Shown piece after piece: positions 18,712-61,585 of a stretch of 64,000 nt of DNA. Below the pieces are notes generated by a model that had not been told where the DNA came from, ran no database searches, and worked only from the letters and a program-made list of their open reading frames with translations. Made by a program: the position numbers and the translations under genes. Position 1 is the stretch's first letter, and the number at the start of each line of letters is the position of its first letter. Source of the stretch: a virus (taxonomy: Duplodnaviria > Caudoviricetes); IMG/VR virus record IMGVR_UViG_3300014204_005796, positions 32,001 to 96,000 of that record. The stretch is one strand, 5' to 3'.

Positions 18712-19233
18712 CTAGTCCTCCTTTATGCGCGTAAATAAGAAAAATTCGTTCGCGCCAAGTTTTTGAAAAAATTTGGTAAACTCATAAAAGTCGGTACTAA
18801 AGAATACTTTAGTACTATCATACACGCGGGAACGCATCTGTGCAATCGATACGTCGGCGTCCCAGCGCAGTTTGTCTAAGCACCGCAAAGACGGAAAGAC
18901 TACACAATGTATATCTGCTTCATTATGTTCAGGTATCAAGTCGTACTTCTGTAGTAGCGCCACGTATTGTTCCAGTACAAATTTAATCGTGGACATACCG
19001 ACGCCCACGTCCCACTCAAAGTGTATGCCAATAGTATGATCTGTGTGGTATTTGTACATAAGGTAATTTCCAGTCTGTACCAAGGTAATTCGCAAAGGTG
19101 TACCTCGTGTTGACGCGTAGAGTTCCATAAACATACGGAAGTATTGCTCCATACATGGGCCATTTGAGGCCATAAGTATGTTCCCGTCAGCGTCATTTAG
19201 TGTAGTAGTGTCATGTATTGTTTTAGAGCTCAT
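18712..19233 (-). CDS. hypothetical protein carrying the shared S[ST]xxFxxE motif
   Basis: GMSTIKFVLEQY; start moved to MSSKT after GGAG SD. Confidence 0.55.
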   Translation of the reverse strand: MSSKTIHDTTTLNDADGNILMASNGPCMEQYFRMFMELYASTRGTPLRITLVQTGNYLMYKYHTDHTIGIHFEWDVGVGMSTIKFVLEQYVALLQKYDLIPEHNEADIHCVVFPSLRCLDKLRWDADVSIAQMRSRVYDSTKVFFSTDFYEFTKFFQKLGANEFFLFTRIKED

Positions 19234-19612
19234 CTTTCTCTCCGTCGCCAAATTTGGCTTTAAGCTTGCGGTATAAGGCGCGTTGTCGGTCTTCATCTGC
19301 AGCTTCATCCCATAGCTTCTCCCGCTCCTTTAACCATATTACAAACTCCTCATGCTTGCGCTGCTCCTCAAAGTACTTAAGGACTGCAGGTTCATTCATC
19401 ATATCTTCTCCACGAGTTTCAAAGTTAGTGGGAATGAGCCTCACGTTTTTATACGTAGGTTGCTCTTGGGATAACTTACACTTGTGTATATCCCACAGCA
19501 TACGCAACATCGCATGCATAGCCTCTTCATGGGTGTTATATTCATCGCAGCGGTTTTCACACCAACGGTAATCATCTTCATCCCAAAAATCATGTACTAA
19601 AATGAACCGCAT
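19223..19612 (-). CDS. hypothetical protein, paralog of 19612-19989
   Basis: shared EEA, YKN..I.PTNF and LKAK motifs. Confidence 0.65.
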   Translation of the reverse strand: MRFILVHDFWDEDDYRWCENRCDEYNTHEEAMHAMLRMLWDIHKCKLSQEQPTYKNVRLIPTNFETRGEDMMNEPAVLKYFEEQRKHEEFVIWLKEREKLWDEAADEDRQRALYRKLKAKFGDGEKDEL

Positions 19613-19989
19613 CAGATATCAACCTGGTACTTGGCTTTAAGTTCTTTAAGTTGCGTACGTTCCCGATCCTCTTTTTCCGCCTCTTCCTGCAATTTCAAGA
19701 GCTTGGTCCGTTCTGCTTCCTTGTCGTACTTAATCTTGCGTTCTATGCAGTATTGTGCATACTGCGGGCACTTGACGAGCTCGGTGACGTCCAGGGAAAA
19801 ATTAGTAGGAGTGATAAGTAGATTTTTGTAGCAGCTGTCATCTCCTTTGGTGGATATTTCATGTAAAATATACAAGGTGTCGACCAATTTTGTATCCAAT
19901 AAAGCCTCCTCAAAAGAATTAAAGGTTTCGGCATGAGAACACCAGTCATCCTCAGAATCAAGATATTCCCACGTAACTAAGAATTTCAT
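19612..19989 (-). CDS. hypothetical protein, paralog of 19223-19612
   Basis: same shared motifs as 19223-19612. Confidence 0.65.
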   Translation of the reverse strand: MKFLVTWEYLDSEDDWCSHAETFNSFEEALLDTKLVDTLYILHEISTKGDDSCYKNLLITPTNFSLDVTELVKCPQYAQYCIERKIKYDKEAERTKLLKLQEEAEKEDRERTQLKELKAKYQVDI

Positions 19990-19992
19990 AGG

Positions 19993-21228
19993 TCACCCCT
20001 TTATGACCGCCACGGTCTTGAGTTTAGTCACAGGTTCAACAAGCTCTTCCTGATCCTTCATGACTACGTCGATGTCTTTATATGCACCTTTACATTCCTC
20101 AGCCACGTCTTCCATCTTACTTTTACCAATGGTTACATTGAGCGTCTTAAGTTCCTCAATCACAGACTGCACGGTGAAGGACTGTTTCGCCTTGGTCCTG
20201 GACATAGCCCGGCCAGCCCCGTGGGAGCATGACATAAAGCTTTCCGGATTTCCTTTGCCGCGTACTATATAGGAGAAGGAACCCATAGCGCCGGGTATGA
20301 TCCCGAGCTCACCTTCGCGCACACGTATGGCCCCTTTACGGTGAACCCACACGTTCTCCCCAAAGTGATTCTCTAACGCAGCATAGTTGTGATGGGCGTT
20401 AATCTCCGTATCAAACTTAACACCCGGAAATTCCCCTCCGACAAGGAGTTTGGCCATCTTCATCATTTCTGCCCTGTTCTGCATGGCAAACTTCTGCGCA
20501 AACATCATCCAGCGTATGTACGCTGCACCTTCAATGGCATCGGTAGGAAGGAACGCCAGCTGTGATCCTTTTGGAACTTCAGAATGCCACCGTGTATTGA
20601 GACGTTCGGCTTCCTTATTATAAAAATCGCATATTACCTTACCCACATTCCTGGAGCCTGAGTGTATCATTATGGCAAGCAGGCCCTGTTCATCTTCCTG
20701 GAGTTCAATGAAATGGTTGCCACCACCCAGAGTACCCAGCTGCTTGTGCGCCTCAGGAAACACCCTGTCCCACAGAGCTGAATCCATGATGCTGTTTGCC
20801 AAAAGAAACGTCTCAAGGCTCTTATACTCTGCGAGTACGTCAGGATCAAACGCGATAGGCATAGCGCGGTGCTGAAAACCAGTAGGTATGTTACGCATGA
20901 GCTGGCCTACAAGCTTCTGCGTCATAGTGCCATTAGGCGTCTCCGCCTTAAGTTCCTTGACTGGAATATCCGTGTGTACATAAACCATTCCGCATCCAAT
21001 ATCTACGCCAACCATATTTGGACTTATGGCACCCTTGAGTGCCGCGACTCCACCCACAGGCATACCATGTCCCATGTGACAGTCCGGCATAAGCGCCACG
21101 TGCTTGAACAGATATGGAAGGTTAGATACGGCCTCGGCCTGCAGTAAGCATGACGGTTCAATAGAGTCCGGGTTGATCCAGGCCTTAATAGGTTTCTTCT
21201 GTACTGTCCCATTAAATATTACATTCAT
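19993..21228 (-). CDS. rtcB: RNA ligase RtcB
   Basis: MPDCH, VGVDIGCGM, LGGGNHFIE, HSGSR, HHNY, HRKGA, PGAMG, SHGAGR, YKDI, terminal KG. Confidence 0.97.
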   Translation of the reverse strand: MNVIFNGTVQKKPIKAWINPDSIEPSCLLQAEAVSNLPYLFKHVALMPDCHMGHGMPVGGVAALKGAISPNMVGVDIGCGMVYVHTDIPVKELKAETPNGTMTQKLVGQLMRNIPTGFQHRAMPIAFDPDVLAEYKSLETFLLANSIMDSALWDRVFPEAHKQLGTLGGGNHFIELQEDEQGLLAIMIHSGSRNVGKVICDFYNKEAERLNTRWHSEVPKGSQLAFLPTDAIEGAAYIRWMMFAQKFAMQNRAEMMKMAKLLVGGEFPGVKFDTEINAHHNYAALENHFGENVWVHRKGAIRVREGELGIIPGAMGSFSYIVRGKGNPESFMSCSHGAGRAMSRTKAKQSFTVQSVIEELKTLNVTIGKSKMEDVAEECKGAYKDIDVVMKDQEELVEPVTKLKTVAVIKG

Positions 21229-21229
21229 G

Positions 21230-21460
21230 TTAGTTGCCTCCTATTTTAGGTTCATTAAAATGCCGCCAAGTCGCGTACGCCCAGAGCACTATAGCCATAC
21301 CAATCAAGGTAGCGACAGTATAGTGGTAGAGAAGCCATCCCCACGCAAGTGCCAGCGCAAATCCAATTACTATAGTTAGTATGCTAAACAGCATATTTCC
21401 TAGTGCCATAAGCGCCGACCTGCCAAGTCTCTTCCAGAAATTTGGTGTCATATAGCCCAC
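21230..21460 (-). CDS. small membrane protein
   Basis: two hydrophobic helices. Confidence 0.5.
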   Translation of the reverse strand: MGYMTPNFWKRLGRSALMALGNMLFSILTIVIGFALALAWGWLLYHYTVATLIGMAIVLWAYATWRHFNEPKIGGN

Positions 21461-22095
21461 CTCGCTTCAAATTTTTTGTACTCTTCAGATAAAGGGTGTT
21501 TTATACTTATGCGTATCTTTGTCATATATCCCAAAATAGAATCTTTGCCAGCGCTCTCTCCGTCCCGGTCCAGCACTTCCTTTATTTGTTTTTTGTATAC
21601 TAATGTGGTTTTGCTCGAGAGTGCTATTAGGGCCATTCCCTATATGGTCTGTTACTTCTACCAAATGCTCTGCTAGAAATACTCGTGTGCATAATGGCAT
21701 GTCCTGTGCGAACATGCCATACACGGCAATGCTTGATGGCGAGCCATAAGCATCTAGGTCCGATATTTCCATGCGCACCTCACCCATACCTTCCATTAAA
21801 AATATTTCTGCATGCTGATTGCACAAACTAAGTGCTGGTAGTTGCATTAATCCGGACATGTGACCCCCATGATGTTCTGGTAATAAGTAAAGAACACCCT
21901 TGTATTTTCATCGTTGAAACTTTCCGCGTCTGGGTTTATAATATGGCAATGTGGGATCTGCCATTAGTACATCCCGCGGATCCTGTACGAATTGGTAGTC
22001 TTCTAGTTTTATATCCATAAGTCCTCCTTTGAACTCGCGGAGCCGGTGCTGCCCGGTGAGGTGATTGCTTGCCACCGGCCCCTTGAGTCCCTTCA

Positions 22096-22560
22096 CTATT
22101 TCATTTTCTTTATAGCCTTAATAGCCACGTCTACCTCATCTATGGCCGCCCGATGTTTCATGAGTTCTTTCATATGGGTGGCCCTGACTTCTACGAGGCT
22201 GGCAAGTACATTGCTGTATTGAGGCACCTTGTTAGCAGGTTTAGTCTTTGTAACATGTGCTTTCTTAATTTTGTAATGCACTATTTCTCCTGCAGCGCGT
22301 TTCTGTGCAAGTACTGCCCGTGCATGTGCTGCGGTCATTCTCAGCCGTTCCTGTTTCTTGGCTTTTTCCTGCAGCTGCTTAGAAGTATAGCGCTGCTGGA
22401 CGTATAAGTCATAAGTTTTTTTACAGCCAGTACATAGGCGCGCATTTGTGAAATCAGCGCTTCCGGCCTTCGCCGCGCATTCCGGGCACAATTTACCTGC
22501 ATCTCTTAACTCTAAAACTAATCCCGGTCTCTTTCCTGTCCTTTTCTTCGTTGCTTCCAT
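22096..22560 (-). CDS. zinc-finger basic protein
   Basis: CPEC...CTGC; start at MEATKK after AGGAGG. Confidence 0.5.
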   Translation of the reverse strand: MEATKKRTGKRPGLVLELRDAGKLCPECAAKAGSADFTNARLCTGCKKTYDLYVQQRYTSKQLQEKAKKQERLRMTAAHARAVLAQKRAAGEIVHYKIKKAHVTKTKPANKVPQYSNVLASLVEVRATHMKELMKHRAAIDEVDVAIKAIKKMK

Positions 22561-22585
22561 GTTCAATCCTCCTTTAGGATCTGGA

Positions 22586-22762
22586 TTAGAGAGCGTCAGC
22601 GCTCTCTTTTGCACACTTTGGACATAACTTAACCCGCACACTCTTATTATATAAGTCAGAATAATACAGGTCGTCCATAGTCTTAACTTTTATGTTCTTT
22701 ACTCCACAGTGCTTACAACGCAATGCTTTCTTTTTTGGGGAGCTCTTCACGCGTGGTGGCAT
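22586..22762 (-). CDS. small zinc-ribbon protein (58 aa, not in ORF track)
   Basis: MPPRVK...CKHC...CPKC; AGGAG SD. Confidence 0.55.
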   Translation of the reverse strand: MPPRVKSSPKKKALRCKHCGVKNIKVKTMDDLYYSDLYNKSVRVKLCPKCAKESADAL

Positions 22763-22765
22763 TTC

Positions 22766-22942
22766 TCATCTCCTTTCTATTTTTCTGTATTCTGTTACTG
22801 TCTCAGTATAGCCAAGGCGCACCAGGAGTTCACACAGAATTTCGTTTGCGTCACGCTTGACCTTAAAGTCTCCAGGATAGCGCTCATGGCGTTTTGCCAG
22901 ATTTTGCAACTTACTTGCTGTCTCTTTATCCGGGTTGCTCAT
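22766..22942 (-). CDS. small hypothetical protein (58 aa, not in ORF track)
   Basis: MSNPDKET...LGYTETVTEYRKIERR; AGGAGGTG SD. Confidence 0.55.
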   Translation of the reverse strand: MSNPDKETASKLQNLAKRHERYPGDFKVKRDANEILCELLVRLGYTETVTEYRKIERR

Positions 22943-22954
22943 AAGGCACCTCCT

Positions 22955-23446
22955 TCAGAGAGAATCAGTCGCTGCTTTTGGGACTAGGAACAGTACAAAC
23001 GGTGAAGTCTCTACCTCATACTCGTAATACTTCTTGAGGTTCGTTTTGGCCAGCTCCTGCTTAAGTATGTCTGTGATGGGTTTATATCCGCGGAATGCCC
23101 CGTGGTACTTACCATTGTACCAAACACACCACTCTATTTCTTTGGGCTCGCCCTCTTCTTCTGTGAGCCAGTCATGCTTACCCCAGAGTGTAAGCATGAA
23201 ATTATGAAAGTTTTCAATAGCAAACAGGACCGTCGATGGGGCAGTTTCGTTCTTCCAGTCGATTTTGAACCCATATTGAAAATCTGGCTCTGCTGCGGCG
23301 GCTTGCTCCTCATTCTTAATATTAGTCATACACACTACATCAAAGTCTAGTCCCTGTAAACCTTTTACTACGGCCGGGTGTTTCTGCGCGTAGCGCATAG
23401 CCCGCAAAATCCTGTGTGTTAAATCATCCGTTATTGACCAATTCAT
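22955..23446 (-). CDS. hypothetical protein with shared motif
   Basis: TAPSTVLFAIENF. Confidence 0.6.
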   Translation of the reverse strand: MNWSITDDLTHRILRAMRYAQKHPAVVKGLQGLDFDVVCMTNIKNEEQAAAAEPDFQYGFKIDWKNETAPSTVLFAIENFHNFMLTLWGKHDWLTEEEGEPKEIEWCVWYNGKYHGAFRGYKPITDILKQELAKTNLKKYYEYEVETSPFVLFLVPKAATDSL

Positions 23447-23670
23447 AATTTGCCTCCTTTTACCTCTTCAATTTTTACGGTATCTTCCTTAAAGCTAAGT
23501 CCTATATCTTTGGCCTCATCGCTAGACCAGTTATCAGGTGCGTCTGCAAATAGGACGGAGCGTACCTCTTGTATTTTTACCCTATCACCAGCTGTTTCCA
23601 CTTCAAAACTAACCTTATACCTTTTTGTCATACCATACCTCCTAAAGTGAGTTTCGCACTAAGCGACTAT

Positions 23671-23694
23671 GGCCGTTTTTTGAGATTCACTGGC
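23671..23694. repeat. 24-bp dispersed element, copy 1
   Basis: GGCCGTTTTTTGAGATTCACTGGC. Confidence 0.75.
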
Positions 23695-23971
23695 ATAGCC
23701 CGGGTCTTCTGTATCCGTGCAGCTTTACTCCTTATAAGTTCAATGGTGCCCGCGTGGGCCTTCAGCTCTATGAGCAGCCCAACCCGAGGTGATGTAACGA
23801 CCGTGGTCAAGCGGCCGCATAGATTCGGACTATATCCAGCTCGGGCACCAATTATTAATTGGCAGTGGTCAGGAGCTAAAGTGTTATGAACTCCCCTGCC
23901 GCAACATTACTAACGAAGCCTCTTATTTCTCCGCATAACTTCGGGTGTTATTCACACGCCACTGTCAAATG

Positions 23972-24733
23972 TTAAATAGCTATTCTCTTCTTTGCGCTTT
24001 CTACCGCCCTAATAAACATCCTGCTCCTCTGGTCGAGAGAAGCGTACTTCAACATGTCAGCCACAGCCATCTCAGTAGGCATATCAAACAGACCGGACTT
24101 GGAAGTCTTCTTGGTGAAGAACTCTGCGCCGACTTCCGACGCTGTAGGAGACAGGTTCAGCTTTTCCCTTTCAGTAGGAGCTTTGTAGCCAAGATTGATT
24201 ATTTTCCATCCCTTGTAGTATGAACCATTTACCATGACCGCTTCTGCGCCGGGGTCTTTTTTGTTCTTTATCTCATTTTTGTACTCGAGATACTCGAGGG
24301 TCATTCTGACACTCCATGATATATCTGTGTCAACTCTGTTGTACTCAATAGCTACCTGCGTCAGAAGATCTTCAAAGGACACCTCGGGTACGCCTTCCAG
24401 TGCATTACGTACAGCCCTCTGAAAGGTTATGGGAGACTCCTTGGTCCCGGATATTAACTGGTCAGCTTCCCACTTTACCTGGTTAAAGCTGAGTATTCCT
24501 GAAGTCCGAGCTTCTGCTTTAGCCGCTTCGTAGTCCTGATAACCTTTAGGAAGTTTGGCCGGCGTGGCCGCAGCAGAGCTTTTTACCAGGCGGGCAGCTT
24601 CTAAGTCTACAGACGCTTTAAACTCCGGATTAGCAAACGTAGCATTGGGCCGGCCATTAAGTTCATAGTCAGCTTTTACGATACTCCACGCTCTAAATCT
24701 GGCGTCAGCTTTACTCAACGGTGTATTGGCCAT
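23972..24733 (-). CDS. hypothetical protein
   Basis: 253-aa ORF with AGGAGG SD. Confidence 0.6.
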   Translation of the reverse strand: MANTPLSKADARFRAWSIVKADYELNGRPNATFANPEFKASVDLEAARLVKSSAAATPAKLPKGYQDYEAAKAEARTSGILSFNQVKWEADQLISGTKESPITFQRAVRNALEGVPEVSFEDLLTQVAIEYNRVDTDISWSVRMTLEYLEYKNEIKNKKDPGAEAVMVNGSYYKGWKIINLGYKAPTEREKLNLSPTASEVGAEFFTKKTSKSGLFDMPTEMAVADMLKYASLDQRSRMFIRAVESAKKRIAI

Positions 24734-24748
24734 GGTAGTCGCCTCCTT

Positions 24749-25357
24749 TTAGAAGTGTATGCCTGCGTCTATAAGTAGCTGTGCTGTTGCAAAAGCAGCA
24801 ATTACAACAATAACTGCCTTACTTATTAGAAGTCCGACGCTCCAAATTATAAGTGAGCGCTCACGTCTTTTAAGTAAAGCGCCTATTTCATACAACTCCG
24901 ACGCGCGGTCGCGCAACTGTAATGTTACAGCGGTCCTAGCGCCCTCTACAAACTGGCTAAGTTCCTCTATGCCGCGTTTCTGCGCCAGCGTGTTAAGCCA
25001 GGACAGATTAACTAGCAGTACAATACAAAGGTCGCTGGTTCCACCAGCGTCAGGGTCAATGCTCCTGGTTATCATAGTCATGGCTAAGTCGTATAGGCCC
25101 ATTGAAGCGAATCCGTACACGCATAAGCCGGTTAACTCTGGTACTTTGGAATAGCGGCCCTCTTCAGACGCTATAGCTACAGCATAGAACGCTGAAAGGA
25201 ACTTTTCTTCTGCGCTTAGTTTCGCTTTAATCATCTTTGACCCGTGGTTTATACCAAACTTTGCCAGTATTGGCGCGTGGAACTTTACTACGTCAGGCCT
25301 TACTTTTTCCAACACTTCAGGCGGAAGTGTGTCAAGATTAAATTTAAATTCTCCCAT
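24749..25357 (-). CDS. membrane-anchored hypothetical protein
   Basis: C-terminal hydrophobic helix; start at MGEFKF after GGAGGTGA. Confidence 0.5.
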   Translation of the reverse strand: MGEFKFNLDTLPPEVLEKVRPDVVKFHAPILAKFGINHGSKMIKAKLSAEEKFLSAFYAVAIASEEGRYSKVPELTGLCVYGFASMGLYDLAMTMITRSIDPDAGGTSDLCIVLLVNLSWLNTLAQKRGIEELSQFVEGARTAVTLQLRDRASELYEIGALLKRRERSLIIWSVGLLISKAVIVVIAAFATAQLLIDAGIHF

Positions 25358-25557
25358 GAGATTCACCTCCGCGTTTTTCTTTAACAATACGCTTCCATTC
25401 AACTTCAGCTTCTTCGCGTGCTTTTTCTGCAATGCTCGCCTGGTCAATCATCATGACAATGATCAGACTCTTCATTGTGGCAACTATCTTAAAGACTTTC
25501 AGAAAAATGTAGAAGGCGACCCAGGTGAACATCAACACTGCAAGAAAAATGTAAGTG

Positions 25558-26163
25558 TTAAGCATGACGGCCACCTCCTGAAAGGATATTGTAAATCTCT
25601 TCTGACAGTTTCGCGTCGTTCTTTTCCTGATAAACTTTCCAGAACGAATACGGAAAGAGACCGCCACCCAGTAACAACACGAAGACGTAATTGAACTGCA
25701 GAAGGAACAGAACCGGCGACAGGATAAGCGCCAGCGGAACCACGGAAAGCACGGTGAGCATTGCTGACTTAACCAAAGCCCATACAGCAAGCTTTATGAT
25801 TCTCGCCATGAACCTCGCCCTCAGTCCAAAAGAATATTTTTCCTTCGCAGTCAGTGAAACATTGGGGTCGGCCAGGTAGGCCGACAGTTCCTTGAACCTC
25901 TTGTTTATCAGGTAGGACCTCAGCATCTGACTCTCAAGTTCCTCAATCATTACATCATAAGGAATGTTGAGCTTCCTTGCCGCCTGAGCTACCCACGTCT
26001 TAGGCACATCCGCGTTGAGCGTTGCCAGCTGGGGGTAAGCCTTGCGTAGTACGGTCTTGAGATGTTCGAAAGCTTCAGGAGTATTTACCGAAGTAAATAT
26101 CCCGTGTACATCATGCCCGAAAACATTCTCTCCACCATTCCGTTTTATTAACATGACCATCAC
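25558..26163 (-). CDS. membrane protein
   Basis: two C-terminal hydrophobic helices. Confidence 0.5.
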   Translation of the reverse strand: MMVMLIKRNGGENVFGHDVHGIFTSVNTPEAFEHLKTVLRKAYPQLATLNADVPKTWVAQAARKLNIPYDVMIEELESQMLRSYLINKRFKELSAYLADPNVSLTAKEKYSFGLRARFMARIIKLAVWALVKSAMLTVLSVVPLALILSPVLFLLQFNYVFVLLLGGGLFPYSFWKVYQEKNDAKLSEEIYNILSGGGRHA

Positions 26164-26166
26164 CTC

Positions 26167-26613
26167 CTATAGATCTATTAAAGCATGTTCTTCAGATAGT
26201 CTCAACCAAGCCTCAATCTTTATTATACCGCAGTTGCAGCCTTGCAGTAAGTGCTTTACAATCTCGTCCTTCCTGATGCCTAACGCGTCGTCTTTCAGTC
26301 CCATGCCATGCTGGCTGTTCTCTTGCCACTTCGAGGTCTTACGCAGTTTCTTTCTTAGGTTGAGCTTCATACTCTTCATATGAAACGCTTCCCAATCCCG
26401 TTCCAAAAGACGCCCAATAAACTTCGTTAAAGCCATCTGCCTTGTGCTGGCTGCGGAATCCTTCGAGAACCAGAACTTAATCTCAATGGTGTCACACCCG
26501 CCGTAGTAAGACTGCACAAACCAGATCGGTGAAATCACTGGATAAAATTCTCTTTGTAGCGCTCGTTCAAGAGCAAGCACTGATTTAGGATTTATGTTTC
26601 CCACAGTCATCAC
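26167..26613 (-). CDS. hypothetical protein with degenerate shared motif
   Basis: FWFSKDSAASTRQMALTKF; first gene after a promoter. Confidence 0.5.
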   Translation of the reverse strand: MMTVGNINPKSVLALERALQREFYPVISPIWFVQSYYGGCDTIEIKFWFSKDSAASTRQMALTKFIGRLLERDWEAFHMKSMKLNLRKKLRKTSKWQENSQHGMGLKDDALGIRKDEIVKHLLQGCNCGIIKIEAWLRLSEEHALIDL

Positions 26614-26632
26614 GTCCCTTCAGTTGAATAGA

Positions 26633-26661
26633 GTATACGACAAAAGTAAGTTAAAGTCAAG
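26633..26661 (-). promoter_or_regulatory. sigma70-type promoter
   Basis: TTGACT-17-TATACT on - strand. Confidence 0.75.
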
Positions 26662-26670
26662 ATAAATCTT

Positions 26671-27348
26671 TTAAGCGTGCCTCACAATTACTTCCCCAAA
26701 CTTTCCAACGTTCCGCGCTATCTCAGCGAAGCGTTCCAGCTGGGCTGCTGGGTAACTGTTTTCTTGCCAAATTCCCGGCCGGAACTGCTGCAAGGCCCAG
26801 CGCTTAGCCGGTGAAATCCATTCTGCTATTTCTCGGATGTCCGCTTCTTCATGCAAGCTCGGTACAATCGTGGTACGAAACTCATAATCTATTCCGCTGT
26901 TTTTTATCATTTCAATCGTCCGGTTTATACCGGCTATTCCCACCATGGCGCCAGCAGCTCTGGCGTACTTAAGCTTTGTGGCCTTGACGTCCATTGCAAT
27001 ATAGTCAACCAATTTCTCATCGATAACTTGCTGCAATATGGTTTGTGAAGTGCCATTGGTATCGAGCTTAATAGGCAAGTTTAATAGTTTAAGCTGCTTC
27101 AAGAAGCTTGGTAAACTGTCATATATGGTTGGCTCACCTCCCGTCACCACAATACCATCTATGAGCTTCCCGCGGCGTTCAATCTCTGTGAACACTTCCG
27201 CATAAGGTACCCCGGTTCCTTCATCACTTTGTAGCGCTTTATTATGACAGTAGAAACACCTAAGGTTGCAGACTTGTGAAAAGATAACGAACGAAACCTT
27301 ACCGGGGTAATCAACCAAACTCGTCGCATTGTAACCATGTATTCTCAT
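26671..27348 (-). CDS. nrdG: anaerobic ribonucleotide reductase activating radical SAM enzyme
   Basis: SLVDYPG, CNLRCFYCHN, TGGEPT, KLDTNG, MDVK, YEFRTT. Confidence 0.9.
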   Translation of the reverse strand: MRIHGYNATSLVDYPGKVSFVIFSQVCNLRCFYCHNKALQSDEGTGVPYAEVFTEIERRGKLIDGIVVTGGEPTIYDSLPSFLKQLKLLNLPIKLDTNGTSQTILQQVIDEKLVDYIAMDVKATKLKYARAAGAMVGIAGINRTIEMIKNSGIDYEFRTTIVPSLHEEADIREIAEWISPAKRWALQQFRPGIWQENSYPAAQLERFAEIARNVGKFGEVIVRHA

Positions 27349-27608
27349 TTGCTCCTCCTTTTCCTAATAACTTGTGGATGCACAAGGCTCGTATCAACTA
27401 TTCCGTGCTTCACAAGGTTCTTTAATATTGCTAAAGCATGTCGCAATTCATGGTCAGTTATTGCGACATTAATATCCGGGGACATACCCAAGTCAGCCCT
27501 ACTAAACCGAGCAATAGGTTTTCCATTGGCGCTTCCTTCAATCACGTAGCTGTTCTTCCACGGAGCTGATATGGTACGCACGCTTAACCGGCCTGAAAAT
27601 AATTTCAT
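27345..27608 (-). CDS. small basic protein ending PQVIRKRRSK
   Basis: ATGA-coupled to neighbours. Confidence 0.5.
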   Translation of the reverse strand: MKLFSGRLSVRTISAPWKNSYVIEGSANGKPIARFSRADLGMSPDINVAITDHELRHALAILKNLVKHGIVDTSLVHPQVIRKRRSK

Positions 27609-27706
27609 TTATGCTTTCTCCGTTTCGGGATACGCTGTGGGTTCTTTTTCTTTGTATTATGGAAAATCTTTTTGATTATGCTCATCATAAACGTGTTGTC
27701 TCCCAT
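27605..27706 (-). CDS. 33-aa basic micro-ORF
   Basis: MGDNTFMMSIIKKIFHNTKKKNPQRIPKRRKHK; GAGGAG SD. Confidence 0.4.
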   Translation of the reverse strand: MGDNTFMMSIIKKIFHNTKKKNPQRIPKRRKHK

Positions 27707-27787
27707 TTACTTTCTCCTCTTCGGTATAACTTGTGGCTGTTTCTTACCATGCTTAATTATTCTAATAAGCCAGGCTGGTGCGGCCAT
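27707..27787 (-). CDS. 26-aa basic micro-ORF
   Basis: MAAPAWLIRIIKHGKKQPQVIPKRRK; AGGAGG SD. Confidence 0.4.
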   Translation of the reverse strand: MAAPAWLIRIIKHGKKQPQVIPKRRK

Positions 27788-27833
27788 TATAAATCCTCCT
27801 TATGAGTTCAAAGCGGCCTTGCGGCCGCCAGGT

Positions 27834-28715
27834 TTACATATCAATCTTATCCCGTAGTCCAAGGAATACTGGAAACCTTGGCGCTTCCTCAGCCGCACCG
27901 CTGGGCTGGTGCTTGAACTTAACCACCTTACCGATGTAGCTCTTCTTGTTCTTCCATAGCTCAGCCCTGGTTGCATCGTCGAACCCCGACCCAATACCGA
28001 ACTGATTCTTGAACTTCTTGCACGTAACAACCAGCTCACCCATTGTTCCCGCGGGCACCATGCCGGCCTTGGCTGTGGAGCGTTTGGTCCTTCCGAAGGC
28101 GTCCTTGTCCGCCGCGTTTTCATTGTGCATCTTCTCATTGATGGCCACAATGGTTGCCTCGTCGTCCTCGAACCTTTTGAGCTTAAGAAGCAAGCCTTCC
28201 TTCGCCGTGGACCGGCCCAGCTTGTAGGGTCCTTCCGGCTTGCGTATCATAACTCCTTCGTACCCTTCGCTGATATACTTCTCTTCAAGTTCCTGAAGTT
28301 CTTCCACGTTCTTTATCTCCACAGGCAGAACCCGTTTGATATGTTCCGCAGGCAGCTTCAAGGCTTCCAAGTCAGCCATGCGCTCTGAGTAAGGCCGGTC
28401 GAGCGCGTCCTTCACATAATCAAATATGAAATACGTGAAGTTCGGCTCTCCTGACTCGCGCATTACGTCGCCCGTGGTTTCCTGGAAGGTCTTGCCCTCC
28501 ATGATGAGCTCGCCGTCAAGCCCGTCCGGCAGGTTCTTCTCAATCCAGGTCCTGATGAAGTGGTTCGGGATCGGCTTGAACGTCCGTGACAGGCACTTGC
28601 CTTCAATCTTCAAGCACCGTATCCCGTCGAGCTTCGTGGTGCAGAGTACCGGGTACTTCAACGTCTTAACATCCTCGCATTTTCCTGCAAGCATTGGCTT
28701 AAGAATTTTTTCCAT
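27834..28715 (-). CDS. ATP-dependent DNA ligase (minimal)
   Basis: KPMLA, KLDGIR, LDGEL, FD, GYEGVMIR, LLKLK, GSGF, PRFPVF. Confidence 0.95.
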   Translation of the reverse strand: MEKILKPMLAGKCEDVKTLKYPVLCTTKLDGIRCLKIEGKCLSRTFKPIPNHFIRTWIEKNLPDGLDGELIMEGKTFQETTGDVMRESGEPNFTYFIFDYVKDALDRPYSERMADLEALKLPAEHIKRVLPVEIKNVEELQELEEKYISEGYEGVMIRKPEGPYKLGRSTAKEGLLLKLKRFEDDEATIVAINEKMHNENAADKDAFGRTKRSTAKAGMVPAGTMGELVVTCKKFKNQFGIGSGFDDATRAELWKNKKSYIGKVVKFKHQPSGAAEEAPRFPVFLGLRDKIDM

Positions 28716-29325
28716 GTGCTTTCTCCTTTTGCCAGCGCAGTTTCTGCGCGTGGCCCATTTTGGTTTTTGTACTAAGGTTATGGTGTCTTCCCAAACGAGC
28801 TCTTCGTATGTTCTCGCAATGCTCTTTTGTAAATGGTTTTCTTTTATGTGTCTGATAGTAATTTTGTAATACTTTTGACATATGCTGCTTGTATTCTTTT
28901 GAGAATGGTTTCATAGGACTTACTGCGTATCTTTGTTTTAATGTTCGTTGTATCTTTCTTTTGGTAGCAACTGACAACTTACGTCCAAGTTGCACAAATA
29001 CGTTTCCTCCAGGTGCTATGTTAAGCAACTTTCCGCCGGACTTTTTATTGTACAAATTTATCCAATAAATCTCAGCACTATTTGCCCGGTCTAATCCAGA
29101 ACATACCTCAAGCAGCACTATACCAGGTTTCTTATTTTCGTGCAGCAGTCCGCGTATCCAGGCTTCTTTGTGATTAAGTTTTCCTAATTTTCCGCGGACC
29201 ACTGACACATGCTGGCTTCTTCGTGCTGCAAGCGACCTATTAGTTTGTCCTACATATCTGACTTGGCGTGTCTTAGGACAAACTAGTCCGTAAATCTTAT
29301 AGCTTTCTTTTCTGCTGTTTCCCAT
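28699..29325 (-). CDS. GIY-YIG homing endonuclease with NUMOD3-like repeats
   Basis: KIYGL...RYVGQT...R..QH, AEIYWI, LLN; start at MGNSRK after GGAG. Confidence 0.85.
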   Translation of the reverse strand: MGNSRKESYKIYGLVCPKTRQVRYVGQTNRSLAARRSQHVSVVRGKLGKLNHKEAWIRGLLHENKKPGIVLLEVCSGLDRANSAEIYWINLYNKKSGGKLLNIAPGGNVFVQLGRKLSVATKRKIQRTLKQRYAVSPMKPFSKEYKQHMSKVLQNYYQTHKRKPFTKEHCENIRRARLGRHHNLSTKTKMGHAQKLRWQKEKAHGKNS

Positions 29326-29446
29326 TACCTTTCTCCTTGTCCCAATAAGGACTCTTGCATTTGGGACATACACGAACCTGAGTTTGTCTGGGCGTCCAAT
29401 GATGCCCGCATCTCTTACAGCCTAACACTTGCACCTTGATATCCAT
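29297..29446 (-). CDS. 49-aa zinc-ribbon protein (not in ORF track)
   Basis: CKRCGHHWTPR...CPKCKSPYW; AGGAGGT SD; first gene after a promoter. Confidence 0.7.
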   Translation of the reverse strand: MDIKVQVLGCKRCGHHWTPRQTQVRVCPKCKSPYWDKEKGNGKQQKRKL

Positions 29447-31132: not shown

Positions 31133-31145
31133 AAGTCACCTCCTC

Positions 31146-31598
31146 TTAAAGATTCATGGTAAAGTTCCACGCTTTAAGCTCCCTGCGAAATACCAGAATT
31201 AAACGGGCGTCTTTTTTGAGACGGTACGTTTCTTTAACCAAAGCTTTTTTAAGTGTATTAAACTCTTTAATGGCTTTGGCATCCTTCGCCCAGTACTTGT
31301 CTATCTCGCGAAAGGTTATTGCTGGCAGGGTACTGTCTGCAGATTTTTCGTGGTCAAATATGTTTATGGCGCAGTACGCCGCCAGAGGATTCTTCATATA
31401 GTTTTCCAACAGTAACACCGCCGTGCTGGTTGCTATGTCAACCAGGTTCACCGCAATAATCAGAGTGTTATCGCGTTTATCTATGTAAGTATCATTCTCG
31501 AGTCCGGTGAACTCCGGAAACGCCAATGGAAGTAACTGCGGCGTCATTGTCAATGACGGACGATTAGTCAGCATTTTACAAGCTTCTTCGGCGTTCAT
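31146..31598 (-). CDS. hypothetical protein with shared motif
   Basis: IATSTAVLLLENY. Confidence 0.6.
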   Translation of the reverse strand: MNAEEACKMLTNRPSLTMTPQLLPLAFPEFTGLENDTYIDKRDNTLIIAVNLVDIATSTAVLLLENYMKNPLAAYCAINIFDHEKSADSTLPAITFREIDKYWAKDAKAIKEFNTLKKALVKETYRLKKDARLILVFRRELKAWNFTMNL

Positions 31599-31601
31599 AA
31601 G

Positions 31602-31994
31602 TCACCTCCTCTTTTTCCAGTCTTCTATAATGTTCCACCAGTCATCGCGGGTCATGTCCCTCCAAGTGTCATGCCCCCGCTTGCCCCACAGAACTCTAAA
31701 AGACGTATATCCTTCTTCAGGATTTGGGTCACCATAATAACATATTCTGCATAAATTTGTGCTCTGTCTATACCCTTTTGGATTTTCAAGACAGATAAGA
31801 ACACTGTGTGACCCATCGCCAGTCATGGCTGCAGGTAATTCGTCGACAGCTAACTTCTGTATCGCAAAGATAAGCGTCGTGGTTGACATCTTCCGCGCCG
31901 TCTCATTCATATGCCATACCCTAGCGTACTCCCAAGAAGGGTACTCTGCTTTGTAGTTTCTTGGGTTCAGCTTGTGCGACGCCACATTCTGCAT
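31602..31994 (-). CDS. hypothetical protein with shared motif
   Basis: MSTTTLIFAIQKL. Confidence 0.6.
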   Translation of the reverse strand: MQNVASHKLNPRNYKAEYPSWEYARVWHMNETARKMSTTTLIFAIQKLAVDELPAAMTGDGSHSVLICLENPKGYRQSTNLCRICYYGDPNPEEGYTSFRVLWGKRGHDTWRDMTRDDWWNIIEDWKKRR

Positions 31995-32016
31995 AAGTCA
32001 CCTCGCGTTGTAAAGT

Positions 32017-32045
32017 ATTATACGACAAAATTTGGTTTGAGTCAA
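32017..32045 (-). promoter_or_regulatory. sigma70-type promoter
   Basis: TTGACT-17-TATAAT; shares TTTTGTCGTATA with the 26.6 kb promoter. Confidence 0.8.
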
Positions 32046-32078
32046 CAAGTATTTTCAAGGTTTAACGGAAACGTTCAA

Positions 32079-32102
32079 GGCCGATTTTGCAGAATCGCTG
32101 GC
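32079..32102. repeat. 24-bp dispersed element, copy 2
   Basis: GGCCGATTTTGCAGAATCGCTGGC. Confidence 0.7.
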
Positions 32103-32435
32103 TTAGCGCCTTGCCTTGACCGAAAAGTAAGCCGCCATCAGCAGTTCCTTTGCACCCCGATTTTCTAATTCTATTTGTGCTGGACTCATTGTGGTCCAAT
32201 ATTCCGCTGGCAGTTTAGGATACCAGGAGAACTCCCGGCCTTTAAACTCTTTCTTCACCCACTTGTTAGGCAGAACAACTGTAACGGCCCAGCCGGGTTT
32301 TGTAGGGGAAGTACAGTTAAAGAACTCCATTGCTTTCTCAAACATAAACCATAAGGAGGAGAACCCGCTGACCTCGCGGAATAGCAAAGATTGAATATAG
32401 ATATATCTGCCTCTAATTTTAAAGTATGCCTTCAT
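32103..32435 (-). CDS. hypothetical protein with shared motif
   Basis: SGFSSLWFMFEKA. Confidence 0.6.
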   Translation of the reverse strand: MKAYFKIRGRYIYIQSLLFREVSGFSSLWFMFEKAMEFFNCTSPTKPGWAVTVVLPNKWVKKEFKGREFSWYPKLPAEYWTTMSPAQIELENRGAKELLMAAYFSVKARR

Positions 32436-32446
32436 GTTATTCCTCC

Positions 32447-33317: not shown

Positions 33318-33321
33318 TAGG

Positions 33322-33738: not shown

Positions 33739-33742
33739 GGAG

Positions 33743-48685: not shown

Positions 48686-49837
48686 TTACTTGGTCTTCGA
48701 AGGCGCCTTGCTTATCTCTTCCTTCATAAGTGTGTCGAAGTACTTGGACAACTTCTGACCCTTGCACGAGCACTTGTCAAACACCATCGGCTGACGTGCA
48801 CCGAACTGACGCATGAAGCTCGTGACAACTTCCACGGTCTTCTCTGTGTCAACCAGCTTGTCAATGAACTTTTCCATTGACTTCTGGAGTTCTGCCCTGT
48901 CCTCTTCCTTGGTCAGTATCATTCCCGCAGGGAGCACGATATCCAGAACGTCATTGAGTGCCTGTTTCTTTTTCAGTGGGTTGTTATTGTTCTTCGTGTA
49001 CTGTGCCCACGCCTTCTGCTTCAAGTCCCACAGGTCTGTAGGATTGATGATGGCATCGCCTACCCACGACTCCAACAAGACGACCGTAGTCGGTGACAGG
49101 ATACCCTTGGCAAGGTTCAGTATCTCTGAAGCGTCATTGACCTCGTCGAACTTCAATGCCTTGACAAGCATGTCAAGCTGTGACCACCCACGCGGGTTAG
49201 TCCACGGTTCGAACGGATGTCCCTTGACAGGCGGAACATAGAACGCCTTCGTGTCATACGCCTTGACGAAGTTCTCAATGAACTTCACAGGCTTCTGGTA
49301 CGCTATCCACTCCGTCACCTCAGGTGTACGCATTCCGTAAATGAATCCCCTGCCTCCTGTCAATGCCGAAGAGAATGCTCTGGCAAACGTGCCGTCCTCC
49401 CCGCCCATATTACCGCTGAACACAAAGAATGTTTTGGCGGGTAAGTGTTCGTCGTCTATTATCTTCTGCCATACAACGTCGAGCACTGCACCTTGCACGT
49501 CTTCAGCCGCGAGTGTCGCCTCGTCAAAGTGCACGAGTGCTCCCGCTTTCTTTCCTGTGTTGCCTGCGTCGATTGCCCTCTTCCAGAACCACGGTAACTT
49601 CCACTTCGTGTACTCACCGCTCACATCAGGAATGCCCTTGATGTCGTACGGCTCTACACGTCCGAGTGATATCGGAATGTATTCCATGCCCATCTCTGTT
49701 GCCGCTTCGCTGATGGCGAACGACTTGCCGATACCAGGGTCTCCGAAAATCATTACTGTGGGCGGGCATGCTGTAGCACCGAACTGTTTCAAAAGCCTCT
49801 TCAATCCTTCCGCGGTTAACATCTTTAACTGTGCCAT
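48686..49837 (-). CDS. MoxR-like AAA+ ATPase
   Basis: GDPGIGKS Walker A, VHFDE Walker B, SGN sensor, NPRGW. Confidence 0.9.
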   Translation of the reverse strand: MAQLKMLTAEGLKRLLKQFGATACPPTVMIFGDPGIGKSFAISEAATEMGMEYIPISLGRVEPYDIKGIPDVSGEYTKWKLPWFWKRAIDAGNTGKKAGALVHFDEATLAAEDVQGAVLDVVWQKIIDDEHLPAKTFFVFSGNMGGEDGTFARAFSSALTGGRGFIYGMRTPEVTEWIAYQKPVKFIENFVKAYDTKAFYVPPVKGHPFEPWTNPRGWSQLDMLVKALKFDEVNDASEILNLAKGILSPTTVVLLESWVGDAIINPTDLWDLKQKAWAQYTKNNNNPLKKKQALNDVLDIVLPAGMILTKEEDRAELQKSMEKFIDKLVDTEKTVEVVTSFMRQFGARQPMVFDKCSCKGQKLSKYFDTLMKEEISKAPSKTK

Positions 49838-50985: not shown

Positions 50986-51540
50986 TTATTTGTTTGTGTA
51001 GACTACAGTCTGCCCGTTGTAAAGCGCCACGATGTTTGATGTCTTAATGTTCATAACGTCCGTTGCGTGTCCTTTCGGCCCGTACTCCGCATACCACACA
51101 TCAACCTCTGCTTCCGTCATAGCCTTATGGTCTGCGTCTTCCGCGCCCATGAACACAGTAGACATAAAGTCTGTGTTCGCCATTTTATACACGCGCAGGT
51201 AATGCTCTTCCTTTGCTGTGTGTTTGAACAGTAACAAGTTACCTGATACAGGTACAGCGTAAGTCTTACCTGCCCTGTCCGAGTTCGGGTCTGCAGGTCC
51301 GTCCAGCTTGCCTGTCTGTACTAATGTCTGATAGTCAACTTTGGATAAGTTAACCACCATTTTACGCAGTACTGTTACGCTGGTCAGGTTTGCAGGTGTG
51401 GCAATGCCTGTCTGCCTGCTCTTCTTTAACGCTTCCTTCGTGCTCGTGTATATGACCGTATACACGCCCGCCTTCGGTAACCCTCCAATGACCTGTTCCA
51501 CTGTCTCTTTCACGGTACACCTCCTAATAGTTTGTGGCAC
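50986..51540 (-). CDS. hypothetical protein, first gene of the early-like block
   Basis: true start probably the GTG near 51513 after AGGAGGTG. Confidence 0.55.
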   Translation of the reverse strand: MPQTIRRCTVKETVEQVIGGLPKAGVYTVIYTSTKEALKKSRQTGIATPANLTSVTVLRKMVVNLSKVDYQTLVQTGKLDGPADPNSDRAGKTYAVPVSGNLLLFKHTAKEEHYLRVYKMANTDFMSTVFMGAEDADHKAMTEAEVDVWYAEYGPKGHATDVMNIKTSNIVALYNGQTVVYTNK

Positions 51541-52663: not shown

Positions 52664-53224
52664 TTACCAGGTCACCGTGGTTGGCGGCCAGGTAGGAGCG
52701 CCAGGTTCCGGGTATTCCAGGGGAGCACTCATGGCCTGGCGCTGTCTCTCCGATTTTTCCATCCGACGCTGCTCGTCACGCTCGTGTTGTTCCAGTTCCA
52801 GCTTTCTCACATGCTTGGCCAAGTCTTCCCCGTAAATCTCATTGCTAAAGTACAGCGTAGGAAAAACTGTCACGCTGATCTCCACTTTGGTTACCAGGGG
52901 CCGGGCTATGACCTGGGCTACTGCTTTTAACAGGCCCGGAGACTCCGGATCTTTCTTCCTTAAGTTAAAACGCTGCGGGTGGTCTACCAACGTCTCCACT
53001 GTTACAGTTATATCGTCTTCTGTAGTTAAGACGTTCTCCATCCAAAATAATAAAGTAGACATAGCCGTGCCGGGCAGAAACTCCTTGCTTAAATGTACTA
53101 CGACCTGCCCCTCGCGCCAGTCCATATTGCAGTCCGCAGACCAGGGCTTTACCTCCGCAAGAAACGCCTTAACCTTCTCTGCAGGTGTCCGCGGTACCTT
53201 TTTCTTTTTATTAAATAGTCCCAT
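52664..53224 (-). CDS. hypothetical protein with shared motif
   Basis: PGTAMSTLLFWMENV. Confidence 0.6.
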   Translation of the reverse strand: MGLFNKKKKVPRTPAEKVKAFLAEVKPWSADCNMDWREGQVVVHLSKEFLPGTAMSTLLFWMENVLTTEDDITVTVETLVDHPQRFNLRKKDPESPGLLKAVAQVIARPLVTKVEISVTVFPTLYFSNEIYGEDLAKHVRKLELEQHERDEQRRMEKSERQRQAMSAPLEYPEPGAPTWPPTTVTW

Positions 53225-53235
53225 AACAGCACCTC

Positions 53236-58956: not shown

Positions 58957-59421
58957 TCAGAAAGACCCAGTACTGTCAAGAGGAATTTTGCGCTGTTTAT
59001 TGAACGCAGTAGTTAGCAGCTCATATATAGGGCCTTGCGGCCAGCGTCCATAGGCAAAGCGCACCCCTCCGTCGTTACCAAGAGGATCTGGGCCACAAAG
59101 GCGAGCTGGCCCTTCAGGATTCGTAATCGTTATGTGGTCCGAGTGAGCCTCTACGGTGTAGCCCGGCATTATCTCCCAGCTGAACAAATTTCCACCATTT
59201 GCCTTTACTATAGTGTACAGATTTTCCATTTCAAAATACACAGTAGACATAGACGTATTAGGGTCCAGCAGCTTGTCTGCTTTTAGTCGAACCACCCGAA
59301 GATCTGTGAATTCCCAATAGGTTAAATTTAAATGCTCAGATACTACTTTGAAAACAAAGTTCTCCCATGCAACTGAGGTTTCCCTTAAACCACGAATACC
59401 CATGCTAAATCTGAATACCAT
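58957..59421 (-). CDS. hypothetical protein with shared motif
   Basis: PNTSMSTVYFEMENL. Confidence 0.6.
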   Translation of the reverse strand: MVFRFSMGIRGLRETSVAWENFVFKVVSEHLNLTYWEFTDLRVVRLKADKLLDPNTSMSTVYFEMENLYTIVKANGGNLFSWEIMPGYTVEAHSDHITITNPEGPARLCGPDPLGNDGGVRFAYGRWPQGPIYELLTTAFNKQRKIPLDSTGSF

Positions 59422-59460
59422 TTACCTGAGGCTCTATCTTGTATGAAGGTTTAACGATTT

Positions 59461-59919: not shown

Positions 59920-59920
59920 G

Positions 59921-60544
59921 TTATTTCTCCCTGCGGGTTTTGCCCGTTAAATCTGGAATTTCTCCTATGCGGAAATCCGTGATACCGTGTTTATGCAGCA
60001 GTTCTGCACAGGCATCACATATGTAGGTATGCCCAAGCAAATAGAGTTTTGCTCCGGTGGCAGCAGACCCGGCTTTACTTATAACGTCCGCTTCTGCATG
60101 CCCACGCTGGTGGCATACTTTTTTGCATAAGTCATAACCAGTACCGGACTTCATATGTTGTTCTTCTCTGGGGCAGTCCAGCTGAGGAGACGCCACCCAG
60201 TTAGAACCAACCCAGTAAGCATCATCTTTGACAAGTATGGCAACAACATGCTGCTTACTGCAGCGCTGCTTATAATGCTTATCAATTTCTTCCATGAGCA
60301 TAACCTTAGTGCGTAAGGCTTCTATACGCATCTGAATCTCCTTTTTCTTTTCTCCAGTATATGTAATGGAACGATTGCCATGCCAATATGTGTCGCCGCA
60401 TTTAACACAGGCGTATATAGGTTGTTCCCAAATATCGTCCATCTTTACAAAAATCATGTCTCCAAGGAAGCCACAGCCACAAAGTCCCCGAACGGGTTGC
60501 TTATAATCTGGTGTCGTCTTTGACATAGGCGAGATACTCCTCAA
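59921..60544 (-). CDS. dCMP/cytidine deaminase-family protein
   Basis: HAE...ICDAC zinc motif; extra N-terminal Cys-rich domain. Confidence 0.75.
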   Translation of the reverse strand: MRSISPMSKTTPDYKQPVRGLCGCGFLGDMIFVKMDDIWEQPIYACVKCGDTYWHGNRSITYTGEKKKEIQMRIEALRTKVMLMEEIDKHYKQRCSKQHVVAILVKDDAYWVGSNWVASPQLDCPREEQHMKSGTGYDLCKKVCHQRGHAEADVISKAGSAATGAKLYLLGHTYICDACAELLHKHGITDFRIGEIPDLTGKTRREK

Positions 60545-61013
60545 CTTGTTTTAGATTATTCTGTATAGTAGCCAAACGCTTATTGTCTTTCTGTCTGGCG
60601 TGCATAACTTTTGAATTTTCTAAAGTAAGTGCCATGCGTAAGTAGCTTCGGGCGTCTTCTAAGAGTTTTACATGTTTTTTCATGTCAGCCTTTAAAGCGC
60701 GTTTATACTTATCACGGTGCTTTGGATACACCATAGGCAGCATTTCAATACGCTCATCGTAGTTTATAGCAGCTAACCACTTTAAATAAACATAGTACCC
60801 AAAGTTATTATACCTCCAGGATGCCCAACCGGCTTTACCCAGCTGAAGCGCAAGAGTCCCAGCTTGTATCGTATAAGACCGCGCTGTCTCCATATCATCT
60901 TTTGCAATAGCCGCCTTAGCTAATTTTGATGCGACCTTATAGTCCTCTAAAGTGCCAGCAGCGGCTGTACACGCAAAGAACAGTACTAAAAAACTAATAA
61001 AATACTTTTTCAT
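60501..61013 (-). CDS. exported helical (TPR-like) protein
   Basis: signal peptide MKKYFISFLVLFFACTAAA. Confidence 0.5.
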   Translation of the reverse strand: MKKYFISFLVLFFACTAAAGTLEDYKVASKLAKAAIAKDDMETARSYTIQAGTLALQLGKAGWASWRYNNFGYYVYLKWLAAINYDERIEMLPMVYPKHRDKYKRALKADMKKHVKLLEDARSYLRMALTLENSKVMHARQKDNKRLATIQNNLKQVEEYLAYVKDDTRL

Positions 61014-61015
61014 TA

Positions 61016-61585
61016 TTACCTCCCAAGTCCTTTGTTAAGAACGTCAAAAAATTTTGACTGCTCACCAAATTTTGCGTCTCTAAATTTATTTGAAACTTTA
61101 TCCCACAAAGTCCAGTCTCCTTGTACGTTACATATTATTTTGCTGTTCCCAATGTTAAATACTAAACCATTTCCAGTCAGCATTCCGGCCAGCTGTTCTA
61201 TAGATAAGTACAGTGAGGATACGGCTACGTCCGTCGGACCAGTAAATTCAAAGTGTACGACGGGTTCTGTAAACGGACCACTGTCTGGAACATCGGCTGA
61301 CCAAAAATTTCCTGAGGCTTTTAGTCCGGCATTCACCATCTTATTTACAAAATCATTTAAGTTACCGCCGGCTTTAACATTTGTGCCATACGCGGTGCCA
61401 CTCCCGCCGGATAAACTTACTGTGTTCGTTGGTAAAGCAAAATTTACCAGTCGGTTCGTGGTAGATGTATGATACTCCCTATGGGCGTCCTTAGCTTCCA
61501 GGAACGCGTCTAATTCAGTTAAGTTTATTCCGTGTGGAGGCATCTTTAGTTGTATCCTTTCCTTCATGGGCACGCAAGTGTTCAA
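61016..61585 (-). CDS. hypothetical protein with shared motif
   Basis: TDVAVSSLYLSIEQL. Confidence 0.6.
   Translation of the reverse strand: MNTCVPMKERIQLKMPPHGINLTELDAFLEAKDAHREYHTSTTNRLVNFALPTNTVSLSGGSGTAYGTNVKAGGNLNDFVNKMVNAGLKASGNFWSADVPDSGPFTEPVVHFEFTGPTDVAVSSLYLSIEQLAGMLTGNGLVFNIGNSKIICNVQGDWTLWDKVSNKFRDAKFGEQSKFFDVLNKGLGR

Follow-up and report, generated by a model that had tools for sequence, protein, structure and literature searches.

Hypervariable, lineage-specific multigene families are known from large phages and DNA viruses, e.g., the multigene families (MGF) of African swine fever virus and the ankyrin/PRANC arrays of poxviruses. Short shared peptides with a dedicated role are known as well: phage T4 has a capsid-targeting sequence, and its prohead-protease sites are of the type L/I-x-E, ending in Glu. 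Here we analyzed a stretch of an undescribed, myovirus-like phage of 107 kb (IMG/VR record IMGVR_UViG_3300014204_005796; Duplodnaviria, Caudoviricetes), in which a ten-residue motif, [AS]-x-S-[STV]-h-x-[FLM]-x-h-E (h, hydrophobic residue), recurs in many small orphan proteins. The window, i.e., the whole stretch of 64,000 nucleotides that was analyzed, corresponds to bases 32001-96000 of a single 106,709-bp contig, and coordinates are positions in this window unless a related locus is named. Large open reading frames (ORFs) lie on the plus strand up to ~50 kb of the genome, one for a baseplate J-like protein among them (the structural strand), and on the minus strand from ~50 kb to the genome end (the early strand). 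On balance, we take the motif to mark a lineage-specific, fast-diverging paralog family of small early-strand proteins whose shared signature is the start of a helix.

A recurrent peptide motif and the proteins that carry it

We first considered whether the motif stands out from its background. An earlier note, made from the sequence alone, had listed about 23 copies, 17 of them clear and six degenerate; all 17 clear strings are present in minus-strand ORFs where the note had placed them, its coordinates being those of gene ends and not of the motifs themselves. Among the 100 proteins encoded on the minus strand of the window, the strict pattern matched 10 times, whereas 1000 shuffles averaged 0.03 matches and never exceeded 1; for its core, S-[STV]-h-x-[FLM]-x-h-E, the figures were 15 and 0.26. 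Over the whole genome, the early strand holds 10 strict matches and the structural strand none, while the 50-kb early region of T4 holds none and three related-phage loci hold 0-1 each, always in their AAA ATPase. In an unbiased seed search, which counted for every 10-residue window the other proteins with a similar window, the motif was the top seed at every threshold, with counts of 8 vs 4-5 in six shuffles at T = 25 and 13 vs 9-13 at T = 20, i.e., with a clear margin only at the higher thresholds. Leave-one-out hidden Markov models (HMMs) of the motif placed 13 of 17 members above all 200 of their own shuffles. The motif is real and strongly non-random, as the earlier note had proposed: it is significant against shuffled controls and by HMM scoring, and its frequency elsewhere is not equal to that seen here.

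Two trivial origins could be discarded. Chance or composition is ruled out by the shuffles, by reversed sequences, by the structural strand, by T4 and by the related loci. A DNA-level element is ruled out as well, given that third codon positions under the motif vary freely, as does even the Ser codon family (one Ser is encoded by AGC and not by TCN); with third positions unconstrained, selection acts on the peptide.

The robust set comprises 17 small proteins of 110-198 aa, 16 of them from the earlier list and one new, encoded at 50986-51540. The count of about 23 was thus partly upheld: beside the 16 robust copies it included two probable degenerate ones, four that belong to another family and one that is doubtful. 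Specifically (proteins being named by their lower gene coordinate), among the six copies called degenerate, 26167 and 37941 match the family layout, 32841 is the doubtful one, and 40174, 41668 and 42721 go to a family of larger proteins (326-432 aa), with which the supposedly clear copy 44043 is also grouped. Most likely, the small family totals about 17-19 early-strand proteins, or ~1 in 7 ORFs on that strand. Its members and candidate members are as follows.

18712-19308, minus strand: member, 198 aa; GMSTIKFVLE at 18970-18999, 95 residues from the C-terminus
22955-23446, minus strand: member, 163 aa; APSTVLFAIE at 23213-23242, 95 residues from the C-terminus; has an ortholog, P0002
26167-26613, minus strand: probable degenerate member, 148 aa; AASTRQMALT at 26425-26454, after a beta strand and 95 residues from the C-terminus
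31146-34159, minus strand: tandem block of six members (31146-31598, 31602-31994, 32103-32435, 32447-32887, 33322-33738 and 33743-34159), with motifs, in the same order, at 31404-31433, 31857-31886, 32337-32366, 32702-32731, 33607-33636 and 34013-34042
32841-33317, minus strand: doubtful copy, inside the tandem block
36046-36492, minus strand: member, 148 aa; AFSTLWFIIE at 36364-36393
37941-38444, minus strand: probable degenerate member, 167 aa; SPSVGVMLLD at 38181-38210, 89 residues from the C-terminus
38441-38821, minus strand: member, 126 aa; PISTLMFLLE at 38702-38731, 96 residues from the C-terminus
45896-46390, 46561-46905 and 46908-47288, minus strand: three members directly downstream of a gene with a vWA-like region (the vWA gene); motifs at 46229-46258, 46756-46785 and 47040-47069
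50986-51540, minus strand: member absent from the earlier list, 184 aa; FMSTVFMGAE at 51139-51168
52664-53224, minus strand: member, 186 aa; AMSTLLFWME at 53036-53065
58957-59421, minus strand: member, 154 aa; SMSTVYFEME at 59224-59253
61016-61585, minus strand: member, 189 aa (175 aa from a later start); AVSSLYLSIE at 61196-61225

The distribution of the family is restricted. None of 20 proteins had a match reaching the curated cut-off in Pfam or PHROG, the family profile matched no PDB sequence, and the literature searched held no relevant description of a family with such a motif. Against 1.84 billion representative proteins, the profile recovered the phage's own proteins, two orthologs belonging to close relatives and two chance matches to repeat proteins. 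One ortholog is P0002, the counterpart of 22955 (61% identity), and the other is a counterpart of 46561 (76%); relatives of 46561 occur in P0037 and in the related-phage locus L006. Otherwise, searches of 1.84 billion or 5.8 billion proteins returned only a 1557-aa repeat protein and a junk repeat, both chance matches. The repeat protein (P0035, metagenomic, 1557 aa) has APSSLFFNIEN or APSSLSFNIEN in some of its ~110-residue repeats and PNSL variants in others, and its match to the family profile had E = 1e-5, which shows that a match to the motif alone is not specific when databases are very large.

Paralog family or portable tag

Two readings had been offered in the earlier note: unrelated proteins that carry a docking or sorting tag, or, as the stated alternative, an expanded beta-alpha family. 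The evidence leans against the former and favors the latter, because the strand-loop-helix context of the motif is constant, its distance to the C-terminus is regular, the layout is partly tandem and a few pairs are detectably homologous. The motif position had been said to vary, and it does when counted from the N-terminus (residues 24-125), but it is regular when counted from the C-terminus, a measure that is independent of start-codon choice: measured from the start of the motif, the C-terminus lies 94-96 residues away in six proteins, and 9 of the 17 lie inside a 10-residue span (p ~3e-4 under two null models). Such a fixed domain layout, with the motif at a set place and a set length, is expected of one paralog family. 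Secondary-structure propensities anchored on the motif Ser peak for beta at -14 to -9 (z ~4) and for helix at +5 to +15 (z 4-5) relative to random anchors, and two low-confidence AlphaFold2 (AF2) models likewise show a strand and then a helix, in line with the proposal that the motif opens a helix, often after a beta strand.

Signs of duplication were found in both gene order and sequence. Eight ORFs in a row include six members (p = 0.014), the neighbors 33322 and 33743 have 35% identity (E = 4e-23), and the upstream parts of 32447 and 52664 are alike (blastp E = 0.004). For three pairs, two of orthologs and one of paralogs, the 24-residue window with the highest conservation contains the motif block. 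Polar residues of the motif (Ser, Ser/Thr, Glu and Asn/Lys/Gln) are conserved while the remainder has diverged, with Glu at +7 in 15 of the 17 members. This pattern points to a shared functional site and, together with the operon-like position of two members directly after the vWA gene, keeps part of the tag idea alive. A Trp lies 33-68 residues past the motif Ser in 14 of the 17 members, which by estimate is weakly above expectation and was not used here.

Several results weigh against a single family. The flanks are dissimilar, as had been claimed: a few pairs apart, neither HMM nor profile-profile tests found similarity beyond the motif. Ungapped HMMs of the flanks detected nothing outside the motif, gapped leave-one-out HMMs on the downstream part gave a mean z of -0.09, and profile-profile alignments (hhalign) between three sub-families span only 13-16 columns. 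The similarity beyond the motif that a paralog family would be expected to show is confined to 33322/33743, 32447/52664 and the ortholog pairs. Hydropathy downstream of the motif is uncorrelated, even in the six proteins with equal C-terminal distance (r = -0.016), and the C-terminal parts of 46561, 46908, 50986 and 61016 are much shorter, at 53-74 residues. The structural models are also of low confidence. For the 22955 domain, AF2 run on the family alignment gave strand-helix-strand-strand-helix-strand with a helix that begins at the motif (predicted local distance difference test [pLDDT] 60.5, predicted template modeling score [pTM] 0.50); for 33322, a long helix begins at the motif Ser, after a strand (pLDDT 54.2). 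The two agree only on a strand, a helix from the motif and a strand, and ESM Atlas models were poor (pLDDT 0.35 and 0.40), so that a common fold of the small family is a reading of low-confidence models.

The 22955 model came closest in structure to the little finger domains of Y-family DNA polymerases, which are of the b-a-b-b-a-b type (Z 6.4-6.6 over 91-96 residues, root-mean-square deviation 3.1), while Foldseek returned no match at E = 0.001 or better against the PDB and viral models. The likeness to the little finger (PDB 4ir1 and 1unn) lies in the order of secondary-structure elements; sequence identity to the 22955 model is 6-9%, and Z is below the level that separates true relatives from common arrangements. 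It may reflect a common arrangement only and supports no function.

We infer the common fold, the exposure of residues and the function of the family along the following lines. Each protein would have an alpha/beta domain of ~110 residues, preceded by an N-terminal extension that varies among members. Within the domain, the motif would make up the loop that follows strand 1 together with the two opening turns of helix 1, which Ser0 and Ser/Thr1 probably cap. On a helical wheel, aliphatic residues at +2, +6, +9, +13 and +16 fall on one face, and Ser0, Phe+4, Glu+7 and the polar residue at +8 on another; the aliphatic +2, +6 and +9 would face the core, with Phe+4, Glu+7 and Asn/Lys/Gln+8 on the other face. 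The family may have begun as one or two genes beside a conserved pair of AAA ATPase and vWA genes (the AAA/vWA pair), which would have expanded by duplication, partly in tandem, before all but the helix start drifted beyond recognition. The helix start would then be the functional site that all members have in common, where they probably make contact with the same partner or ligand, and the rest of each protein, being variable, might give each copy its specificity toward host targets, i.e., in host takeover or counter-defense. Strong purifying selection on one helix start with free divergence elsewhere is the pattern to be expected if proteins have a single contact in common but each its own target, and Ser0, Phe+4 and Glu+7 offer a defined set of point mutants for finding that contact.

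How far do other explanations account for the same observations? If unrelated folds carried the same short helix as a portable docking or sorting tag for one common phage or host partner, it would be natural that only the motif aligns in the HMM, profile-profile and hydropathy tests, that the conserved polar residues (Ser, Glu and Asn/Lys/Gln) share one helical face with Phe, and that the unrelated proteins of 326-432 aa also start with an S-[ST]-I helix of similar type. A tag of this kind seems unlikely to us, however, given the constant strand-loop-helix context and regular C-terminal distance, the partly tandem arrangement with some detectably homologous pairs, and the motif positions +2 to +6, which are all hydrophobic and suit a packed helix better than a free tag; both AF2 models also fold the motif into a domain. 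The N-cap and hydrophobic-staple rule, by which Ser stands at the cap and hydrophobic residues at -1 and +4, describes the motif well, and the helix begins at the motif in both AF2 models, as it should if the signature were purely structural, nucleating folding in copies that have no shared partner and are functionally independent. Yet capping rules leave the near-invariant Glu+7 and the polar +8 unexplained, as they do the lack of any other conserved core position, and we regard a signature of this purely structural kind as improbable.

As in the capsid-targeting and prohead sites of T4, a short peptide ending in hydrophobic-x-hydrophobic-Glu is shared by otherwise dissimilar phage proteins; this end of the motif (h-x-h-E) resembles the L/I-x-E sites, and the length after it is regular. 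Here, however, the motif is internal (residues 24-125) rather than N-terminal and is predicted to be folded, and the genes are on the early strand, away from the head genes and with no link to a head module, so that a T4-like protease-processing or capsid-targeting signal is very improbable. Beta-clamp-binding motifs are of the QL[SD]LF type, with a leading Gln and in a flexible terminus. The motif does not conform to this type, as it lacks Gln at the corresponding position and lies inside the proteins, behind a strand.

Related phages, the larger family and the gene setting

No close relatives were found among isolated phages and IMG/VR contigs. Close relatives do occur in samples ERZ27247323 and ERZ1426829. 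Relatives recognized by their AAA ATPase (41-54% identity) have a common gene order, namely AAA, DUF2201_N/vWA, small genes, several paralogs of 300-370 aa and GP88, and the AAA/vWA pair is kept in all relatives found. The expanded small family was not found in the ~20 kb examined around the AAA gene of these relatives. Directly after the vWA gene, L006 has a clear motif copy (LSPSTILYLIEKL) and a weaker one, L005 has a degenerate copy after its vWA gene, and in a related gene of L009 the motif Glu is replaced by Lys. From this distribution, it would follow that the family predates its expansion and that its oldest members adjoin the AAA/vWA pair.

The proteins of 326-432 aa are treated here as a second family and not as members of the small one, an assignment that follows from their sequence features.

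40174-41472, 41668-42684, 42721-43809 and 44043-45023, minus strand: larger family, 326-432 aa, separate from the small family

Of these, 40174, 41668 and 42721 (338-432 aa) are mutually related, with an N-terminal M-x-A-S-[ST]-I helix and then a GPDTD-L-x-LLL stretch. The fourth, 44043, has the same N-terminal helix and an SPDTE stretch and was not recovered by jackhmmer; it is placed here, against its earlier listing as a clear copy, by those two motifs only. The N-terminal helix of the larger family resembles the small-family motif only at S-[ST]-h, and the small-family HMM detected none of the larger proteins. Across phages, larger orphan proteins of this kind (270-430 aa) are present in three to five copies per phage and are kept in all relatives examined, at 15313-19644 in L002, 13437-19358 in L005, 12251-16451 in L006 and 9628-10572 in L009. 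In each, an N-terminal M-x-[AT]-S-[ST]-I/L helix precedes [GS]-[PT]-D-T-[DE] by about 20-35 residues, and they have no Pfam match.

In related phages, the early region syntenic with the motif-rich part of the window encodes several ankyrin-repeat proteins (9282-9896, 12590-13018, 13682-14728 and 20171-20662 in L002; 16465-17217 in L006). No Pfam match to ankyrin was obtained among the ~50 window proteins run.

Recognizable genes on the minus strand of our phage include those for a sigma-like protein, RtcB, a radical SAM enzyme, a DNA ligase, a GIY-YIG protein and GP88, as well as a MoxR-like AAA ATPase, a DUF2201_N protein, a deaminase-like protein and a glycosyltransferase. Those placed in the window are as follows, with the enzymes at 19993-29373 interspersed with orphan genes.

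18068-18652, minus strand: sigma-70 region 2-like protein, at the strand switch
19993-21228, minus strand: RtcB RNA ligase
26671-27348, minus strand: radical SAM enzyme
27834-28715, minus strand: ATP-dependent DNA ligase
28699-29373, minus strand: GIY-YIG protein
47285-48631, minus strand: DUF2201_N putative metallopeptidase (HEAGH) with a C-terminal vWA-like region (about residues 300-448; DCSGS...TDG)
48686-49837, minus strand: MoxR-like AAA ATPase (AAA_5-type), conserved neighbor

The AAA/vWA pair and comparison with known systems

The position of some members beside the AAA/vWA pair raises a more specific idea, i.e., that members are clients or adaptors of the MoxR-type AAA ATPase and the metallopeptidase-vWA protein, with the motif Glu as sixth, acidic ligand of the metal ion-dependent adhesion site (MIDAS) and with the member, or a host protein that it carries, being remodeled or cut. 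Targets bind to MIDAS sites through an acidic residue on the target surface (PMC9976466), a role that the motif Glu could fill. The genes are in place for it: an intact DxSxS...T...D vWA, as would be expected for a MIDAS-bound client, is encoded with a MoxR-type ATPase, the vWA-like C-terminus (DCSGS...TDG) following an N-terminal HEAGH region (Pfam DUF2201_N). Two members come directly after the vWA gene, whose stop codon overlaps the start of 46908 (ATGA), and small motif-bearing genes are kept at or near that place in related phages. However, gene order is generally conserved across the relatives, so that adjacency is weak evidence, the relatives retain the pair with few or only degenerate members, and one distant relative has Lys for the Glu. 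A client role, which would be compatible with a common fold, strikes us as quite unlikely. Slightly less probable again is its fuller form, an adaptor or client library in which the Glu would enter the MIDAS metal site of the vWA and each diverged body would bring a different host protein for remodeling or cutting; if so, the phage would encode a targeting system with diversified substrates, by a logic analogous to that of F-box or PRANC adaptors.

A sequence fitting the strict pattern also occurs in the AAA ATPases of L002 (10001-11149) and L006 (7035-8198), as SPSTVSLFAE near residue 248. The ATPase of the window has SPTTVVLLES there, one residue shorter (49067-49096, minus strand). These strict-pattern matches in AAA ATPases are probably a coincidence.

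Among described systems, NorQ/NorD with cNOR (PMC9976466), where the target is bound through the MIDAS site of the vWA protein, resembles the AAA/vWA locus: a vWA protein with DxSxS...T...D is encoded together with an AAA ATPase, and in our phage small proteins with a near-invariant acidic residue come next. The locus differs in that its vWA protein carries a putative metallopeptidase domain and in that the candidate targets are a multigene family instead of one enzyme complex.

The paralog family that we favor is closest in kind to the multigene families of large viruses, and the most likely explanation of the motif is ordinary in this sense, i.e., a lineage-specific multigene family. For now, the practical value of the finding is limited, pending a host and an isolate. 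The likeness lies in the many fast-diverging copies of small early proteins, partly in tandem and within one virus lineage, in the single short conserved helix and in the probably host-directed roles. The differences are that the genome is only 107 kb, that the copies are scattered over 43 kb with no single array, and that conservation is limited to ~12 residues, with no sequence relation to those families. Taken together, hypervariable multigene families, which so far have mostly been described from jumbo phages and giant viruses, would extend to a phage of medium size.

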